Source: a virus
Direction: 5' to 3' (one strand)
IMG/VR virus record: IMGVR_UViG_3300043466_002666
DNA: 64,000 nt
Shown here: piece after piece, positions 15,587 through 63,949 of the stretch
How positions within the stretch are numbered: position 1 is the stretch's first letter
Layout: every line of letters starts with the position of its first letter
Notes under the pieces: model-generated
Databases searched by the model: none
The model's input: the letters and a program-made list of their open reading frames with translations, nothing else
What the model was told of the DNA's origin: nothing
Made by a program: the position numbers and the translations under genes

Positions 15587-16978
15587 TCACATTAGGTTGA
15601 TGACTCTGGTTCTTCTGTAGTAAACGTTGTCGTTTGCCTGTAGAGCACCAGAACGCTGGGTTAGACCACCTGCGAATGGGTTTGCAACCATGCCATAACG
15701 GGTCTTGAAGCCAATCTTTGGCTGGAAGGTGTCCTGACCGATGGAACGAACCATCTGGAGAGGTACATATGGGCAATAGAAGAGACCTGCATCATATGCA
15801 TTAGAACCCTTATAACCCATCACGTAGTAGTGATCGTTGGAGATATTTGCTGAATATGGATCAACATATACCTTGATGCGACCATTTATTGTACCAGCTA
15901 GAGTTGATACGGTGTCGTCTGGAGTGTCTGAAGTGTTGAGTAGTGGGGTGTAATCCATTACCTTAGCAGCAGCTAGAGCACTTGCAACGTCTGCTGAACA
16001 GACGATGAAGTTACCCTTTCCTCTACGAGTCTCATGACCGATTGCGTTTGCATCACGCTCAATCTGGAATAGTAGACCCTTGAACTTCTCAACTGACCAA
16101 CGACCATTGGAGTCAACGTCTAGGTCGAAAGTACCAGCGTTAGCTACGTTATTCTGAGCACCAGGCTTAGCGGTTACGTAGATGGTACGAACAACTTCAC
16201 GGTTGATTTCAGTTAGAATCTCTGAGCTTAGAATGTTAGCTAGCTCAGTCTCAGCATCAAGACCATGGATAGCCTTGAGGTCTTGTGCTAGTTCTAGGGT
16301 GTACTCAGCTTTTAGAGCACGGCTCTTTGCTGTTACAGTTACCTTCTCGATTGAGAAGCTCATTTCACGGAACTCAGATCCGCTTTCACCTAGAGCTTCA
16401 GCAGCGTTGGTGTTCATACCACCAACATAACCGTAATCGCCAGGGCTTGCTGCGTTTAGTACGCCAGGGTTGGTTGCACCTTCGCCAGTTGCAGCAGAGT
16501 ATGCACCACCAGCAGCAGAGAAACCTGAAGGAACTTCGTTGAAGAAGGTCTCGTTGTCGAATACGTTTGGAGTAGCACCGTTACCATTACGGTCAGTACC
16601 ACGATGAGCACGCATTGCGAAGATTAGACCAGTTGGACCGCTCATTGGCTGAACACCGCAAATGTCATAAGCAATTAGCTTAGGCATTGAACGGCGGATT
16701 AGGCTGATTAGAACTGGGTCGAAACCTGCAACAGGACCACCAGCAGCAGCGCCACCTGAGAAGCCGTGAGCGCCTACACCAGCACCACCTGAGGTGAATG
16801 AACCAGTGCTATTAACTGCAACCTCGGAAAGAACACCACGCTCTTCACGTAGGAATGATTCTTGGTTCTCAAGAAGAACTGCGGTTACGGCCTTACGATA
16901 TCTGTCTGTAATTGGGTTTAGATCGTTGTGCTCCAAAATAGGAGCCCATTTTCTTTGTAGCTGTTCTGAATTAAACAT
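15587..16978 (-). CDS. gp23: Major capsid protein
   Basis: KWAPIL, FDPVLISLIRRSMP, GVQPMSGPTGLIFAMR, KSRALKAEYTLELAQDLKAIHGLDAE, FQPKIGFKTRYG. Confidence 0.99.
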   Translation of the reverse strand: MFNSEQLQRKWAPILEHNDLNPITDRYRKAVTAVLLENQESFLREERGVLSEVAVNSTGSFTSGGAGVGAHGFSGGAAAGGPVAGFDPVLISLIRRSMPKLIAYDICGVQPMSGPTGLIFAMRAHRGTDRNGNGATPNVFDNETFFNEVPSGFSAAGGAYSAATGEGATNPGVLNAASPGDYGYVGGMNTNAAEALGESGSEFREMSFSIEKVTVTAKSRALKAEYTLELAQDLKAIHGLDAETELANILSSEILTEINREVVRTIYVTAKPGAQNNVANAGTFDLDVDSNGRWSVEKFKGLLFQIERDANAIGHETRRGKGNFIVCSADVASALAAAKVMDYTPLLNTSDTPDDTVSTLAGTINGRIKVYVDPYSANISNDHYYVMGYKGSNAYDAGLFYCPYVPLQMVRSIGQDTFQPKIGFKTRYGMVANPFAGGLTQRSGALQANDNVYYRRTRVINLM

Positions 16979-59229: not shown

Positions 59230-59347
59230 TGAGTATATCGAAGTCGATGGATAAGGTTTATAGCTTATATAGTATCTATTTTTTTCACGGCCCGGCGGGC
59301 CGGCGACCCATAAGGCCCGCTTATACTGCCCTGCCCGACTGATCAGG

Positions 59348-59423
59348 ACTGCTGATGGATCAGGAATGCTGATCTGTCTTGCCACTGGCTGATAAGCACT
59401 GCTGATGGATCAGGAATGCTGAT
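59348..59423. repeat. Two perfect 26-nt direct repeats (50-nt period), each containing the palindrome CTGAT-GG-ATCAG
   Basis: ACTGCTGATGGATCAGGAATGCTGAT at 59348-59373 and 59398-59423. Confidence 0.9.
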
Positions 59424-59456
59424 GGAAGGGGCCAGCCTGGCTAGCCCCGTTGCTGA

Positions 59457-59624
59457 TCAGGCCAACTCTAGCCAGCCATCCACATAGGTGTTCACTCCGA
59501 ACACTAGGGCTGCAGCCTTGGCCTCAGCCTGCTGGCGGGTCTCGGCCTTAATGCTGATAAGCTCAGCCATCAGCTCGGCGGTCTCGGGTGCGGGGTAGAA
59601 AGCGGTGAAGGTAAAGGTGGCCAT
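59457..59624 (-). CDS. Early small hypothetical protein (55 aa)
   Basis: Not in ORF track. MATFTFTAFYPAPETAELMAELISIKAETRQQAEAKAAALVFGVNTYVDGWLELA; -10 TACAAT at 59652-59657. Confidence 0.7.
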   Translation of the reverse strand: MATFTFTAFYPAPETAELMAELISIKAETRQQAEAKAAALVFGVNTYVDGWLELA

Positions 59625-59696
59625 TGGGGTTCTCCCTTGGTTGACTAGTCAATTGTAGCACGGATGGGGCCAGCCTGGCCAGCCCCTGGCTGCTGA

Positions 59697-59921
59697 TCAG
59701 TCAGCCGATGCAGCCGCTAGCAGTTCGGCGATCTGATCAAACCGATCCCACGCTGCCTTGCCCACGGCGCTGCAGCCGCTGGGGGTAAGGTCTGGCCGAC
59801 GACCCTCTACGGCATCCCGCCAGAGGCTGTGCCAGCGTGTTGCGGCGTCAGCTAGCTGGCTTTGCAGCTGGCGGGCCTCGTTACGGGTGAGGGTCAGTGT
59901 GATAGTGGTTTGCTTAGCCAT
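59697..59921 (-). CDS. Early small hypothetical protein (74 aa)
   Basis: MAKQTTITLTLTRNEARQL...; co-oriented with the early cluster. Confidence 0.7.
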   Translation of the reverse strand: MAKQTTITLTLTRNEARQLQSQLADAATRWHSLWRDAVEGRRPDLTPSGCSAVGKAAWDRFDQIAELLAAASAD

Positions 59922-59983
59922 GGTTCGGGTGTGGTTGATCGGTGGAAGTGGAAGGGGAGGCCCGGAGGCCTCCCGTGTGGGGG

Positions 59984-60169
59984 TCAGGCTAGGACTCGGT
60001 TCAGCCTGTTGTGGAGCGCCTGGGCGCAGAATTGGCCCCGGATCCCCATGGTGAGGGATGCCCCACGGTGAGGGATCAGATCCACCCAGGCGGTGGCCCC
60101 GCTCCGCCAGATGGCAAGGCGGAAGCCCAGGGCGTGAAGGGCGGTGATGTCGGCGGCGTTGTGGGTCAT
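59984..60169 (-). CDS. Early small hypothetical protein (61 aa)
   Basis: Directly downstream of promoter cassette 60170-60240. Confidence 0.7.
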   Translation of the reverse strand: MTHNAADITALHALGFRLAIWRSGATAWVDLIPHRGASLTMGIRGQFCAQALHNRLNRVLA

Positions 60170-60240
60170 GGTCTCGGGGTTGTGGGGGACCGTTTGCCCC
60201 CGTTGAAAGAATTATAGAGGGTGGAAGGGCCAGCTGTCAA
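60170..60240 (-). promoter_or_regulatory. Early promoter + 5' stem-loop cassette, copy 1
   Basis: TTGACA-gctggcccttccaccctc-TATAAT, then GGGGGCAAACGGTCCCCC hairpin and CCCGAGACC-ATG. Confidence 0.85.
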
Positions 60241-60258
60241 TCAGCTGGCCTGTATGGG

Positions 60259-60543
60259 TCACCAATCGCTGGGGTCGTACTGATCACAGAGCCAGTCGGC
60301 CCGCTCAGCTTCTGTCATTGGCCTAGTGAGGCTGAGCGGGCCGCAGGCCCAGATCTCAGCTTCCTCGCCTTGCTCAACCGGGCAGGCCCAGCTGAGAATC
60401 ATCCCAGAGGGGAGATACAGCCACGCCCTGGTGGGCTGGCCAGCCTTGGTATCCACATAGAGCCAGTGGATCACTGTCTGAAACTTAGGGGGAAGCTGGA
60501 GCTGGCCCACGGTGCAAGGGGTGAACAGATCAGCAGTTTGCAT
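60259..60543 (-). CDS. Early hypothetical protein (94 aa)
   Basis: ORF track 60259..60585. Start moved to MQTADLF at 60543, downstream of the promoter cassette. Confidence 0.7.
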   Translation of the reverse strand: MQTADLFTPCTVGQLQLPPKFQTVIHWLYVDTKAGQPTRAWLYLPSGMILSWACPVEQGEEAEIWACGPLSLTRPMTEAERADWLCDQYDPSDW

Positions 60544-60616
60544 GGTCTCGGGTGGTAGTGGGGGACCGTTTGCCCCCGTGATCACAATTGTAGAGGGTGG
60601 AAGGGCCAGCCGTCAA
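60544..60616 (-). promoter_or_regulatory. Early promoter + 5' stem-loop cassette, copy 2
   Basis: TTGACG-gctggcccttccaccctc-TACAAT, with the same hairpin and leader as copy 1. Confidence 0.85.
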
Positions 60617-60634
60617 GCAGCTGGCCCGATGGGC

Positions 60635-60958
60635 TCAAACTGTGGCGTTGCGATCCTGGCTCCAGTCCCGGAGCCGGCGAGTGCTGGCCTTGCTGAACAC
60701 CCGGTCCCCAATGGTGCGGCCATCAGCCAGGGTGATTACAGAGCGCCCAGCGGCGTCAGCCGCTATCTGCAGAGCCTGGCGGCCAAGCTTGCGCTCTGCA
60801 GGCAGAGCGGTGGGGCTCTCCCACAGATCCAGCAACCATTGGGCACGATGCCGGCCAACGATGCAGCCGGTTTTGATCGTGACCTTGGCTACTGCCACAG
60901 CCACGGGGGTGGGGATGCTGGTGCGGGTGAGGCGGTCAGAGCGGTTGGGGTTTGCCAT
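60635..60958 (-). CDS. Early basic hypothetical protein (107 aa)
   Basis: Co-oriented; -10 TACAAT at 61001-61006. Confidence 0.65.
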   Translation of the reverse strand: MANPNRSDRLTRTSIPTPVAVAVAKVTIKTGCIVGRHRAQWLLDLWESPTALPAERKLGRQALQIAADAAGRSVITLADGRTIGDRVFSKASTRRLRDWSQDRNATV

Positions 60959-61057
60959 GTTCCTGGGGGTGTGCGGGCTCCTGTCGGCCCGCTTGATGTA
61001 ATTGTAGGGGATGGGGGGACCCTGCCTATGGGTCAGGCCCCGGATTGTTGCAATCTG

Positions 61058-61339
61058 TCACACTGACGGCAACCCAGCAACCCAGGCTGCTGCAGCCGCC
61101 AAGCTGGAGAACTCAGCTCCCACGCTGGGGCATTGCCAGACGCTAAAGCAGCGGCGCTCCCATTGGCCGGCGTCATTGTGATCGTATGGGGCGTCTACCA
61201 TAACGCTCACAACCTGATCCACTCGGATCAAGTGAACCCAGCCACGGCGGCCCCTGATGGCGGCCTGCCAGTCCCGAACCCAGCGGCGCTGGCCGGGAGC
61301 TGGAGAGAAGACGGCTGGGCGGGAAGCTTGGCTGATCAT
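61058..61339 (-). CDS. Early Trp-rich hypothetical protein (93 aa)
   Basis: Co-oriented; -10 TATACT at 61364-61369. Confidence 0.6.
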   Translation of the reverse strand: MISQASRPAVFSPAPGQRRWVRDWQAAIRGRRGWVHLIRVDQVVSVMVDAPYDHNDAGQWERRCFSVWQCPSVGAEFSSLAAAAAWVAGLPSV

Positions 61340-61426
61340 GGCTGAATGCCTCAGGACTCATTAAGTATACAGACTAGGAAGGGCCAGCCGTGGCTGACTG
61401 ACCCGGTTTGTTGCAAAGCTTAATCT

Positions 61427-62185
61427 CTACACTTTGCTGGTGAGAATCGGCTGAAGCTCTTTACGATAGCCTCCGAACTTACCAGCCCGGCGGCGTGCAA
61501 ACAATGCTTTGCCGTAGGTTGAACCTTTAGGCTGGGTTGAATGCACAAGCAAAGCAAACGGATTGTCGCCGAAACAGTGGCTATCATCATGATCAACCTC
61601 TAAACCCAAAGCCTCAGCTTCCTCGTCATTGTGAACCACTTTACTATAACGAGGGAACAAACCTTCGTCGATCATGTGATCGAACTTGCCCCCATAGCTG
61701 GCGGTCATGTAGAAGTTAGAAGGCAACTCCAAACCTACAAACAGCGGCAGGTTCTTGCTGTAGCAGTAGAACTTGAGATCAGGATTAAGCTTGGCAACCT
61801 CTAGCCAAGCGAGCAAGTAAGCGAGGCTAAAGAAGTCGCCGGACTCGTGAATTCTCACCAGCTCGATCCTTTTAGTGCGAGCATTCTGCAGGCTGGTGTT
61901 CAACAACTCTACAGCAGTGCTGGCCTTAATCGCATCTGCGATTAGCTGGAGATTGCGAGCCCGAGAGAAAAACGGGCCATCGTATTGTGCCTCGCTGGTT
62001 GCAGCAAAGCACCGAAACTGAGTTTGCGGGCCGTCTTGAATGTGGCGCTTGCCGTTCTCACCAACAACAGCAAAGCTCAGGCAGAAAAGGGCACCGGGGC
62101 AGGTCTTGCCTGCCGGCAGGTTGAAAATCAGAGTTTGCTTGCCAAGCTTGGCGTTGCCGGTGGAAAAGGTCAGCAGATCAGACAT
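61427..62185 (-). CDS. GP88-like protein (mycobacteriophage gene 88 family-like)
   Basis: GNAKL, FNLPAGKTCPGA..C, RCFA, VRIHESGDFFS..Y, FYCYSK. Confidence 0.75.
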   Translation of the reverse strand: MSDLLTFSTGNAKLGKQTLIFNLPAGKTCPGALFCLSFAVVGENGKRHIQDGPQTQFRCFAATSEAQYDGPFFSRARNLQLIADAIKASTAVELLNTSLQNARTKRIELVRIHESGDFFSLAYLLAWLEVAKLNPDLKFYCYSKNLPLFVGLELPSNFYMTASYGGKFDHMIDEGLFPRYSKVVHNDEEAEALGLEVDHDDSHCFGDNPFALLVHSTQPKGSTYGKALFARRRAGKFGGYRKELQPILTSKV

Positions 62186-62265
62186 GGGTCTGTGTCGGTG
62201 GTTGACTTGAAAATCTTAGCAGGTGGGAAGGGCCAGGCTGGCCGGCCCTGTAACAAAATGAAATA

Positions 62266-62430
62266 CTATACTTTAGCCAGGCAATTGTCGATAAAGACAA
62301 ACAGCTCGCCCAGGTCAATGGTAGAGTTAACCCAGCGAACAGCAGAGCCATATTCAGCCAAGAATTCATCAGCAACTAGACACCCAGCTGCAAAGTCTAG
62401 GGCTTCAAAATAGCTTAGGGTCGGGTTCAT
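62266..62430 (-). CDS. Early small acidic hypothetical protein (54 aa)
   Basis: Not in ORF track. MNPTLSYFEALDFAAGCLVADEFLAEYGSAVRWVNSTIDLGELFVFIDNCLAKV; -10 TAGGAT at 62455-62460. Confidence 0.7.
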   Translation of the reverse strand: MNPTLSYFEALDFAAGCLVADEFLAEYGSAVRWVNSTIDLGELFVFIDNCLAKV

Positions 62431-62488
62431 TGGTGTGCCTGCAAGTGCCTGTTAATCCTACAGCAATGGGTGAGCCCGAAGACTCACC

Positions 62489-62506
62489 CATGTAACATTA
62501 TGTAAT
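62489..62506 (-). promoter_or_regulatory. HLR1 (RpaB-box)-like direct repeat, best of five copies
   Basis: ATTACATA-AT-GTTACATG versus consensus (G/T)TTACA(T/A)(T/A)-N2-(G/T)TTACA(T/A)(T/A). Confidence 0.5.
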
Positions 62507-62508
62507 AT

Positions 62509-62700
62509 CTACATCTCCAGCTGCCAATCTTGGTCTTTAAGTATATTTACCCAAAAGAAGTTTCGTCCATTCATACTACGCAGGAACACTTTGTCTCCTT
62601 TGTGTTGTTCTACAATACAATGTTCGCATGATTCCATTAGATTAGCGAACCTGTTTTTAGCTTTCTTTGAGATTGGCTTAACCGAAATCATCGGATCCAT
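62509..62700 (-). CDS. Early small hypothetical protein (63 aa)
   Basis: VKPISKKAKNRFANLM...CIVEQ...FFWV..DQDW. Confidence 0.75.
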   Translation of the reverse strand: MDPMISVKPISKKAKNRFANLMESCEHCIVEQHKGDKVFLRSMNGRNFFWVNILKDQDWQLEM

Positions 62701-62828
62701 GATGAGACTTTGCGATTGATTATGCTTAATAATTTAAGCATGATGAGAGCAGCAATGAGTTCAGCTGTCACAATTTGTTATAGTTAATAATTTGGTGGGG
62801 AGTTGCCTCCCCGTGTATAGTTAATAAT

Positions 62829-63092
62829 TTAGACAGTAACAGTTACTAATTCTTCAGTCTTTCGGCCATCAGCAATGGTAGAACCAATGCTAACATCTTT
62901 CAGCATCTGATCATTAGTAAGCAAATCACTCAGGAATTGTGCATAAGACTCACTACATGTGAATGTGTATGCTTTGTCTACATTGCTGTGATAAGTGATA
63001 ATAATATCAGTATTGTCTACAGTAATGGAATGAATGGCACTGGACTGTTCTTTAGTAAACTGACGGTGAACAGGAGAGATTGCAACGGTCAT
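62829..63092 (-). CDS. Early hypothetical protein, KTSC-like
   Basis: SSAIHSI...ITYHSN..AYTF...SIGS pattern. Start moved to MTVAISP at 63092, downstream of the promoter. Confidence 0.65.
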   Translation of the reverse strand: MTVAISPVHRQFTKEQSSAIHSITVDNTDIIITYHSNVDKAYTFTCSESYAQFLSDLLTNDQMLKDVSIGSTIADGRKTEELVTVTV

Positions 63093-63120
63093 GGTGTTCT
63101 GTGTGTTGTGTGTACAGTTA

Positions 63121-63178
63121 ATAATGTAGCTGGTGGGGGCTGAGGTTGTCAACCCCTTTGGGCCAGTTTCAGAATTGG
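63121..63178 (-). promoter_or_regulatory. Early promoter with upstream palindrome, copy 1
   Basis: CCAATT-CTGA-AACTGG...GGGGTTGACA-18 nt-TACATT. Confidence 0.8.
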
Positions 63179-63443: not shown

Positions 63444-63463
63444 TGGTTCAGTAGTGAACATTG

Positions 63464-63521
63464 ATAATGTAGCTGGTAGGGGTTGGACTTGTCAACCCCT
63501 TTGGGCCGGTTTCAGAACTGT
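63464..63521 (-). promoter_or_regulatory. Early promoter with upstream palindrome, copy 2
   Basis: ACAGTT-CTGA-AACCGG...GGGGTTGACA-18 nt-TACATT; near-identical to 63121-63178. Confidence 0.8.
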
Positions 63522-63688
63522 CAGTCTAGGCAACCGTTGGCGTTCAGCCAGCCAGCACACCAGCCCTCACCAGTGTAGCATCCGACATAGTAGTTGCCAA
63601 TTGAAATACCAAACTGTTCTTCCATGTGGTAGGTATTCTTCAGATCCCAACCGAGATAGAAGAACTTGGTGTGAATGGAGAATTTCAT
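63521..63688 (-). CDS. Early small aromatic/Gly-rich hypothetical protein (55 aa)
   Basis: Not in ORF track. MKFSIHTKFFYLGWDLKNTYHMEEQFGISIGNYYVGCYTGEGWCAGWLNANGCLD; promoter TTGACA-18 nt-CATACT at 63712-63741. Confidence 0.7.
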   Translation of the reverse strand: MKFSIHTKFFYLGWDLKNTYHMEEQFGISIGNYYVGCYTGEGWCAGWLNANGCLD

Positions 63689-63766
63689 GGTCTTGTGTGG
63701 TTGACTTGTTCAGTATGGCATGGGTTGGGGGCTGGTGTCAACCCCCTGATTGATTAGTAATACTAA

Positions 63767-63949
63767 TCAGACATCATAACAGAGGTATTCCATCATCTCT
63801 TCTTTATACATTGCAGTCTCAGCTTCAGTGTTAAATTTAACACCTGCGAGGAAGTTGTAATGGTCAACCCAAGATGCACACCATGTCATTTTGTAGTCAT
63901 GATTTGCAACTGAGTTGTACTGATTGCAAGTGTCGAGAATCAGAGCCAT
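63767..63949 (-). CDS. Early small hypothetical protein (60 aa)
   Basis: ORF track; co-oriented with the early cluster. Confidence 0.65.
   Translation of the reverse strand: MALILDTCNQYNSVANHDYKMTWCASWVDHYNFLAGVKFNTEAETAMYKEEMMEYLCYDV

Follow-up and report, generated by a model that had tools for sequence, protein, structure and literature searches.

Upstream boxes of the early-gene cassettes

The 64,000-nt stretch of viral DNA analyzed here (IMG/VR record IMGVR_UViG_3300043466_002666; its full length is called the window) has a GC content of about 32% and was assigned to a T4-like cyanomyovirus, because a baseplate-wedge (gp8) match to Synechococcus phage S-SM1 was found among its large minus-strand structural genes. 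Between 64.0 and 59.4 kb, the window carries 14 small minus-strand open reading frames (ORFs), g1 to g14, of which only g8 (62185-61427) has a family match (GP88 family, PF17338, E=1.7e-41). Nearly every gap in this region, named after its flanking genes (I1-2 to I13-14), contains a cassette composed, in this order, of an upstream box, a GC hairpin that covers the -35 position, a -10 hexamer, and a leader. The subject of this report is the upstream box of five such cassettes, which the initial annotation had likened to HLR1, the binding site of the cyanobacterial OmpR-family regulator RpaB, and whose occurrence is more than chance once its position is counted.

A hairpin was found in 12 of the 13 gaps between the ORFs, the exception being the adjacent genes g3 and g4, and a TAnnnT hexamer follows 7-11 nt past the hairpin end in all hairpin gaps but I12-13. 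Five gaps (I1-2, I2-3, I4-5, I10-11, and I11-12) contain TTGAC(A/G), located in the hairpin loop or 5' arm. The five promoters under study, in I5-6 to I9-10, had been described as lacking TTGACA, and indeed no -35 was seen in any of them. The five 18-mers reported for the minus strand were all present, and the reported distances of 36, 36, 35, 45, and 45 nt to the -10 were correct for TAGGAT at 62460, TAAGAT at 62218, TAAATT at 62736, TACAAT at 61006, and TATACT at 61369, respectively. Four of the five boxes lie directly 5' of a GC hairpin, a feature of these promoters not mentioned before, and I5-6 has no hairpin between the box and the -10.

HLR1 was scored as the published consensus, namely two (G/T)TTACA(T/A)(T/A) units 2 nt apart, with a maximum of 16 and no weight matrix. 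A register Fn or Rn denotes a match on the forward or bottom strand, respectively, whose first base lies n nt before the -10. The p value of each site came from composition-matched shuffles scored only at the recurrent registers, which were chosen after the data had been seen. The parts of the five promoters, with putative -10 hexamers, are as follows.

62767..62784, minus strand: g6 promoter box (I5-6), ACTATAACAAATTGTGAC, overlapping the 18-mer first noted at 62764-62781; HLR1 13/16 on the bottom strand, register R48, shuffle p=0.008
62731..62736, minus strand: putative -10-like hexamer TAAATT of g6 (62700-62509), 35 nt after the G of GTGACA; position kept in the relative G006
62489..62509, minus strand: g7 promoter box (I6-7), GATATTACATAATGTTACATG; 14/16 forward (F46), 12/16 reverse (R49), shuffle p=0.001
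62466..62491, minus strand: GC hairpin of I6-7 with a UUCG loop, over the -35 position and just 3' of the g6 stop codon; -19.9 kcal/mol, z=-4.4
62455..62460, minus strand: putative -10 hexamer TAGGAT of g7 (62430-62266), 36 nt after the G of GTTACA
62247..62267, minus strand: g8 promoter box (I7-8), AGTATTTCATTTTGTTACAGG; 12/16 forward (F46), 11/16 reverse (R49), shuffle p=0.043
62229..62249, minus strand: GC hairpin of I7-8, AGGGCCGGCCAGCCTGGCCCT, over the -35 position; -14 kcal/mol, z=-0.9, not significant against GC-rich shuffles
62213..62218, minus strand: putative -10 hexamer TAAGAT of g8, 36 nt after the G of GTTACA
61407..61427, minus strand: g9 promoter box (I8-9), GAGATTAAGCTTTGCAACAAA, the weakest of the five; 11/16 (R58), shuffle p=0.066
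61381..61404, minus strand: GC hairpin of I8-9, GGGTCAGTCAGCCACGGCTGGCCC; z=-1.6
61364..61369, minus strand: putative -10 hexamer TATACT of g9 (61339-61058), 45 nt after the G of GCAACA; also 45 nt in the L004 ortholog
61044..61064, minus strand: g10 promoter box (I9-10), AGTGTGACAGATTGCAACAAT, overlapping the g9 TGA stop codon; 13/16 reverse (R58), 12/16 forward (F55), shuffle p<0.0002
61013..61041, minus strand: imperfect GC hairpin of I9-10, GGGGCCTGACCCATAGGCAGGGTCCCCCC; z=-0.3, weak alone, its hairpin family also present in L001, L002, and L004
61001..61006, minus strand: putative -10 hexamer TACAAT of g10 (60958-60635), 45 nt after the G of GCAACA

At the recurrent registers, the highest scores were thus 13 (I5-6), 14 (I6-7), 12 (I7-8), 11 (I8-9), and 13 (I9-10) of 16. 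The I6-7 box is the best HLR1 match in the window, tied at 14/16 with eight other window sites. In the orientation first noted, only 62489-62506 is good (14/16), and the others reach 10-12/16. On the opposite strand, the sites at 61044-61064 and 62764-62784 gain one to two points (13/16). None of the six other cassettes of the window exceeds 10/16 at the recurrent registers, so that the division into promoters with and without the box holds. The accompanying claim that neighbors with TTGAC(A/G) lack the repeat stood in this sense only, as it depends on the threshold: I2-3 and I4-5 carry TTCTGAAAC(C/T)GGCCCAAA at the 36-nt register with 10/16. A cassette that lacks both a -35 and the box was also found (I13-14).

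When the -10 is placed at -12 to -7, the predicted box centers lie at -49.5 for I5-6, I6-7, and I7-8 and at -58.5 for I8-9 and I9-10. I8-9 also has an alternative -10, TAGTCT, 7 nt upstream of TATACT. Compared with shuffles, only the I6-7 hairpin folds significantly (z=-4.4), and the three others do not, given their GC-rich composition. The spacer from the cassette hairpins to the -10 is C-rich, with no U-tail on any, which makes their termination efficiency uncertain. In the 128-nt gap I5-6 (62698-62831), ATTATTAA(C/G) occurs three times: ahead of the hairpin, past it, and at the distal -10; the copy past the hairpin aligns with the -10 region of I4-5. Cassette recombination seems to have left this gap as a composite, and its layout may provide two promoters.

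Conservation of box position in the cassette family

Relatives were drawn from IMG/VR, as close records were not found in the phage collection. In IMG/VR, GP88 homologues were located at 238 places, and 80 loci were retrieved for analysis (given here by L numbers); a complete 172-kb relative with terminal repeats, G006, shows about 81% nucleotide identity over g8 and 68-81% in other matched segments. In these 80 loci and G006, the GP88 (g8) homologues are flanked by the same cassette, including the shared leader AAGTCAACCAC or CAGTTCACACC. Counterparts of the window boxes occur in relatives: for I5-6, ATTGTGACAGCTGAACTC is retained in G006, again 35 nt from a hexamer, TAAACT; for I6-7, L003 has the orthologous box ATTTCATTCTGTTACA and L004 has ATTTCGATTTGTAACG; for I7-8, TTAAG(G/C)TTTGCAACA stands at the same place in L001 and L003; and the I8-9 box GAGATTAAGCTTTGCAACAAA recurs in L001 and L004.

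The distance from the box to the -10 proved to be the conserved quantity. A TGNNACA heptamer was found 0-4 nt before the hairpin in 92 of 240 non-redundant cassettes (TGGCACA in 51, TGTCACA in 9, TGTTACA in 8, TGCAACA in 5, and other forms), and its G lies 35-37 nt from the -10 in 79 of the 92, with a second mode at 44-45 nt formed by five cassettes, two of them from the window. In the main mode, the standard deviation of the total distance (1.18) is lower than that from the box to the hairpin center (1.23) or from this center to the -10 (1.32), and the two parts are negatively correlated (r=-0.57); 86% of the distances fall in one 3-nt bin, compared with a maximum of 64% in 2000 permutations. 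Since the total varies less than its parts, it is the spacing between the box and the -10, rather than that between the box and the hairpin, that is kept. Together with I5-6, which keeps 35 nt in the window and G006 with no intervening hairpin, this conserved spacing points to a promoter function at the DNA level at about -49 to -43.

When 247 related cassettes from uncultured cyanophages were anchored at the -10, HLR1 matches of at least 11/16 formed sharp peaks, with 0-2 matches at most other positions. On the forward strand, these peaks have their first base 46 nt (10 cassettes) and 54/55 nt (19 cassettes) before the -10; on the bottom strand, they lie at 49 nt (14 cassettes) and 57/58 nt (23 cassettes). 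At the recurrent registers, 33 of the 239 cassettes from outside the window reach at least 12/16, compared with 2.6±1.6 in shuffles (13-fold), and 14 reach at least 13/16, compared with 0.4. Many boxes of the family are clean bottom-strand direct repeats, TGTNAM-N4-TGTNAM, as in L003 (TGTAAACCTTTGTAAC, 15/16), L011 (TGTTAATGATTGTTAC, 14/16), L032 (TGTGAATCTTTGTAAC, 14/16), and L073 (TGTGACAGTTTGTTAA, 14/16).

These data bear on the view that the boxes are AT-rich words that resemble HLR1 by accident in an AT-rich phage genome. Counted over the whole window, HLR1-like sites are indeed not enriched (85 sites with up to three mismatches, compared with 72±9.6 in dinucleotide shuffles), 466 sites on both strands reach at least 12/16, and by consensus count alone four of the five sites are at background level. 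An accidental origin is nevertheless very improbable, in view of the register-specific excess in the related cassettes, per-site shuffle p values down to <0.0002, and orthologous boxes that are kept where their flanks diverge.

Comparison of close relatives further showed that differences in gene content consist of whole units of cassette plus gene, with the joints inside cassettes. In L001 (98% g8 identity), the box downstream of g8 is joined to the I9-10 hairpin, g9 is absent, and an extra ORF stands between g7 and g8; g7 is absent in G006. The cassette region is best read as undergoing modular shuffling like that of the promoter early stem-loop (PeSL) cassettes, which have been described as an AT-rich region, a stem-loop, and a sigma-70 promoter that mediate shuffling (PMC2839356). 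This raises an explanation with no protein partner, in which the boxes would be inherited PeSL-type recombination patches, AT-rich UP-like DNA, or the 3' end of the upstream mRNA. The exchanged units and their joints in L001 and G006 would fit such an origin, as would the stop codons overlapped by some boxes. We consider it unlikely, because the distance to the -10 is kept while the length and position of the hairpin drift, the 35-nt spacing of I5-6 is held with no hairpin at all, and conservation falls on particular G and C bases (TG..AC), which is not the pattern of UP elements. Moreover, GTGACA and TGGCAC are non-complementary at one position, so that an RNA stem is not maintained, and the same boxes are found at the same distances at host photosystem I (PSI) promoters, which are not phage cassettes.

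Several known elements were also considered for the box and rejected. A UP element (A/T tracts at -38 to -59) disagrees with the conserved T-G..A-C positions and with the GC variants TGGCACA and TGTCACA at the same register. PhoB/SphR, which had been put forward as an alternative reader of the repeats, was not supported, as the best matches to the Pho box (PyTTAAPyPy(T/A), 11-nt period) reach 9-12/16 at scattered positions and strands. No complete GTA-N8-TAC was found for an NtcA site (GTA-N8-TAC, centered at -41.5). Finally, if the box served as a distant -35 and the hairpin were extruded, the remaining spacing would be about 10 nt, which is unsuitable; this last point is by reasoning only.

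Likeness to host photosystem I promoters

The PsbA of G006 shares 91-93% identity with D1 of Cyanobium and of freshwater or marine Synechococcus, which suggested the Cyanobium/Synechococcus clade as the likely host. PSI promoters were aligned from five picocyanobacterial genomes (G007-G011; loci L176-L180, L184-L185, L188-L196, and L202-L206). In each of these promoters (psaA, psaE, psaD, psaF, and psaI-psaL), there is no -35, and an upstream block and the -10 are conserved while the DNA between them is not. The upstream blocks are as follows.

psaA: ATT(A/G)AA(C/T)CTTTGTAAC, with the G of TGTAAC 35 nt before TATRCT; R48, 12/16, bottom strand GTTACAAAGGTTTAAT
psaE: GCAACGAACCGTGACATC, including GTGACA, with the G at 35 nt; F45, 11/16
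psaD: (T/A)TGTTG(A/T)CGGGTGTGAAG, with the T of TGTGAAG 46-47 nt before an extended -10; R58, 11/16
psaF: GTCACAACTTGTTTCGAG, an 18-mer at 55-38 nt before the -10; F55, 11/16
psaI-psaL: ATTGAACTTTTATGTCGC, an 18-mer at 56-39 nt before the -10; R56, 11/16

The distances from the host box to the -10 are 35 nt for psaA and psaE, 45-47 nt for psaD and psaF, and 43-44 nt for psaI-L. The phage cassettes and the host PSI promoters use the same two distances, 35-36 and 45-46 nt. Half-sites as degenerate as those of the phage (TTTGTAAC, GTGACA, and TGTGAA) occur in the psaA, psaE, psaD, and psaF promoters. Some phage boxes come close to copies of the host sequence: TGTAAACCTTTGTAAC in L003 and ATTTCGATTTGTAAC in G006 and L004 are near to the host ATTGAACCTTTGTAAC, and TGTGACGGATTGTGAAC in L008, with its T at 46 nt, is near to the psaD box TGTTGACGGGTGTGAAG, also at 46 nt. 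The I9-10 box resembles both of the latter, at 45-46 nt.

PSI promoters of Synechocystis are the textbook class of RpaB-activated promoters. Activation by RpaB occurs with HLR1 centers from -66 to -45 and peaks at -51 (PMC6525291; preprint 10.1101/2023.12.07.570523), and the predicted phage centers of -49.5 and -58.5 fall within this range, which favors RpaB as the reader of the boxes. HLR1 motifs have been mentioned in cyanophage genomes (10.1101/443713); in the literature, no report was found of HLR1 on early-gene cassettes, nor of a relevant described cyanophage early-promoter box. Serving as an internal control, the psbA leader of G006 carries an HLR1-like GTTACGTTTCTTCACATA, at a repressing position known from hosts, and a further TTTACGTT; the former suggests that HLR1-like sites are present in this lineage at a position used by hosts. 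The psbA promoter of G006 itself (L092, 104500-104615) is composite, with a sigma-70 promoter, TTGACA-17-TGgTACTAT, overlapping a late-type TATAAATA.

Taken together, these data led us to favor, with a probability of roughly 0.55, the reading that the five early promoters carry putative RpaB (HLR1) activator sites that copy the architecture of host PSI promoters, set in PeSL-like cassettes. Each cassette would run from the stop codon of the previous gene into a box of 18-21 bp with two TGTNAM/KTNACA half-sites one helical turn apart, usually followed by a GC hairpin on the -35 position that probably ends the upstream transcript, then, after 7-11 nt, by a TAnnnT -10, a short leader, and the ATG. 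Host OmpR-family RpaB, bound to a box centered near -50 (I5-6, I6-7, and I7-8) or near -59 (I8-9 and I9-10), as in the PSI promoters of the likely hosts, would recruit these promoters that lack a -35. The genes g6-g10 would then follow RpaB occupancy, with expression while RpaB occupies the box (low or moderate light, reduced state) and a decrease upon transfer to high light. The proposal of the initial annotation that a subset of early genes is wired to a light-responsive host regulator thus gained a position-locked box, a place in the published activating range, and the likeness to host PSI promoters, and is qualified by three weak sites, an ambiguous orientation, and a poor fit of the commonest box of the family to HLR1.

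A number of points weigh against the RpaB reading, in addition to the missing window-wide enrichment. Three of the five sites reach at most 12/16, and I8-9 alone is not significant (p=0.066). TGTWACA being palindromic, the orientation of the box is ambiguous; scores are often higher on the bottom strand, which is also the case for host psaA and psaD. The registers tested were picked post hoc, and the transcription starts and -10 hexamers are predicted positions, not mapped ones. The host was deduced from the PsbA of the relative G006, which is 81-87% identical in this region, and not from this phage, and the host comparison covered PSI promoters alone. The host PSI boxes themselves reach only 11-12/16, and RpaB binding there is extrapolated from Synechocystis. 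The commonest box of the family, TGGCACA with GTGACA, is dyad-like, fits HLR1 only at about 10-11/16 over the proximal 18 bp, and is also found on promoters that possess TTGACA. Finally, since the cassettes spread by recombination, some of the recurrence of the box reflects common descent and not selection.

The majority box is the strongest ground for a different reading, in which a fixed-position promoter element is read by another protein (a phage early protein, RpaA or another OmpR-type regulator, or a dimer on GTGACA-N10-TGKCAC), with a superficial likeness to HLR1. TGGCACA dominates the family (51 of 92), and in 41 cassettes GTGACA stands exactly 10 nt upstream of it (logo TGTGACAGTyTGAnAAsTGGCACA), with some perfect dyads GTGACA-N10-TGTCAC. 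TGTGACA-N10-TGGCACA is very abundant in L009-L080 (e.g., L015:1800-6900), directly 5' of the hairpin and with its G 35-37 nt from the -10. The AT-rich and GC-rich forms share a register and interchange at the same g8 flank in different phages, and the GC form, as it co-occurs with TTGACA, is not a simple substitute for a -35. On the other hand, both forms coexist in single contigs at similar GC, which argues for classes rather than drift, and the host PSI promoters use equally GC-shifted half-sites (GTGACA, GTCACA, and TGTGAA) at the same registers. In the bottom-strand reading, the distal two units of the TGGCACA form make HLR1-like direct repeats at R57 (11-14/16), and TGGCAC is an extra half-site at R49. 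No candidate phage DNA-binding protein was found among the ORFs neighboring the cassettes. We therefore regard another protein as a rather unlikely reader of the five boxes.

The TGGCACA element itself may represent a GC-shifted HLR1 array, or a different protein may bind to it. The idea that its AT and GC forms are one motif drifting with GC content was rejected, because both occur in the same contigs and TGGCACA is found in the lowest-GC loci. An RNA stem of GTGACA with TGGCAC was likewise rejected, as the dominant pair is mismatched at one position and shows no covariation.

Other cassettes, related systems, and significance

The remaining cassettes of the window, and the gene that follows them, are listed below.

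63090..63171, minus strand: cassette I4-5, of the other class, whose hairpin contains TTGACA; its -10 is TACATT, and TTCTGAAACTGGCCCAAA occupies the 36-nt register; HLR1 only 10/16
63459-63523, minus strand: cassette I2-3, a twin of I4-5
59622..60637, minus strand: cassettes I10-11, I11-12, I12-13, and I13-14 in a 59% GC island, each with a hairpin, with a clear -10-like hexamer except in I12-13, and with no HLR1-like box
59385-58639, minus strand: HNH endonuclease gene (PF13392), of low GC, directly after the GC island

A perfect palindrome, TTAGTATTACTAA, was found at 63740-63769 in I1-2, upstream of TTGACA-containing hairpins, and is kept in L002, L003, L004, and G006 (16263-16290); it is a third class of upstream box. 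In G006, TTGACA also occurs in the loop of GGGGG...CCCCC hairpins outside the early island (plus strand, 101738, 102738, 107257, and 129396), suggesting that the hairpin as a -35 is a general promoter design in this phage group. I10-11 (60541-60637) and I11-12 (60167-60261) are near-identical paralogues that share GGCCAGCTG-TTGAC-GCTGGCC, CTTCCACCCTC, TA(C/T)AAT, and a second leader hairpin, GGGGGCAAACGGTCCCCC, which indicates a recent cassette duplication.

The GC content at 60-62 kb is 59%, and the small ORFans at 59400-62300 form a 59% GC island inside a phage of about 32% GC. The equivalent region of G006 (16-24 kb) is likewise GC-rich (47-50%, compared with 37% overall). This suggests that the genes of the island were acquired from phages of high-GC picocyanobacteria or are adapted to such hosts. 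A promoter-less stretch at 59300-59440, with repeated ATCAGCATTCCTGATCCATCAGCAG units, precedes the HNH endonuclease gene, and no match at E<=1 to known RNA families of the Rfam type was obtained in 58.5-64 kb.

The cassettes combine features of several known systems. Like the RpaB-activated class (Synechocystis PSI promoters and the type III-Dv cas10 promoter), the five boxes have two imperfect 8-nt KTTACAWW half-sites one helical turn apart, a center about 50-60 nt before the predicted start, and no usable -35. They differ from it in that they precede ORFan early genes and not photosynthesis genes, usually have a GC hairpin between the box and the -10, and match at 11-14/16, often better on the bottom strand. 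With the PeSL cassettes of T4-type phages (RB49/phi1, PST, and nt-1; PMC2839356, PMC4122927), they share the pairing of an early promoter of host type and a GGGG...CCCC stem-loop, present once for each small ORFan of a hyperplastic region, and indels or replacements between close relatives that are bounded by cassettes. In the PeSLs, however, the stem-loop lies upstream of the AT-rich region and the -35, whereas here it is inside the promoter, over or containing the -35, and a subset has a specific upstream box in place of any -35. PeSLs have been judged sparse in cyanophage S-PM2 (PMC4503421). In promoter-coupled terminators (Fletcher et al., bioRxiv 10.64898/2026.08.19.745784), the DNA of the terminator stem-loop likewise extends into the following promoter and can also serve as its -35, with the -10 within about 10 nt; their spacer is the T-tract of the terminator, whereas here it is C-rich, with no U-tail, and an activator box appears to be added.

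A further parallel lies in host-regulator sites captured by cyanophages, by which a phage promoter is likewise wired to a two-component or global regulator of the host. Pho boxes at phage pstS are said to have been described by Zeng and Chisholm in 2012, and NtcA sites in cyanophages were reportedly predicted by Sullivan et al. in 2010. Such cases concern auxiliary metabolic genes such as pstS, whereas the boxes described here would occupy an activating position on portable early-gene cassettes.

Most early genes of cyanophages are ORFans, and little is known of how their expression is adjusted to the physiological state of the host. The host comparison yields candidate RpaB sites for the PSI promoters of picocyanobacteria, at 35 and 45-46 nt to the -10. 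If RpaB does read the phage boxes, part of the earliest phage program would be gated by the redox state of photosynthetic electron transport, which would help to explain mechanistically why cyanophage infection depends on light. In that case, the cassettes that shuffle promoters and terminators would also carry the site of a host regulator along with them, and newly acquired genes would arrive "pre-wired". We suggest, more tentatively and as a still doubtful extension, that in cyanomyoviruses of picocyanobacteria, a group represented mainly by contigs of uncultured phages, the cassette is a portable recombining unit whose PSI-copied box places newly acquired ORFans under RpaB from the onset of infection, and that the dozens of boxes on replicating phage DNA might titrate RpaB and shift the host to a state like that of high light, with hli and psbA up and PSI down.

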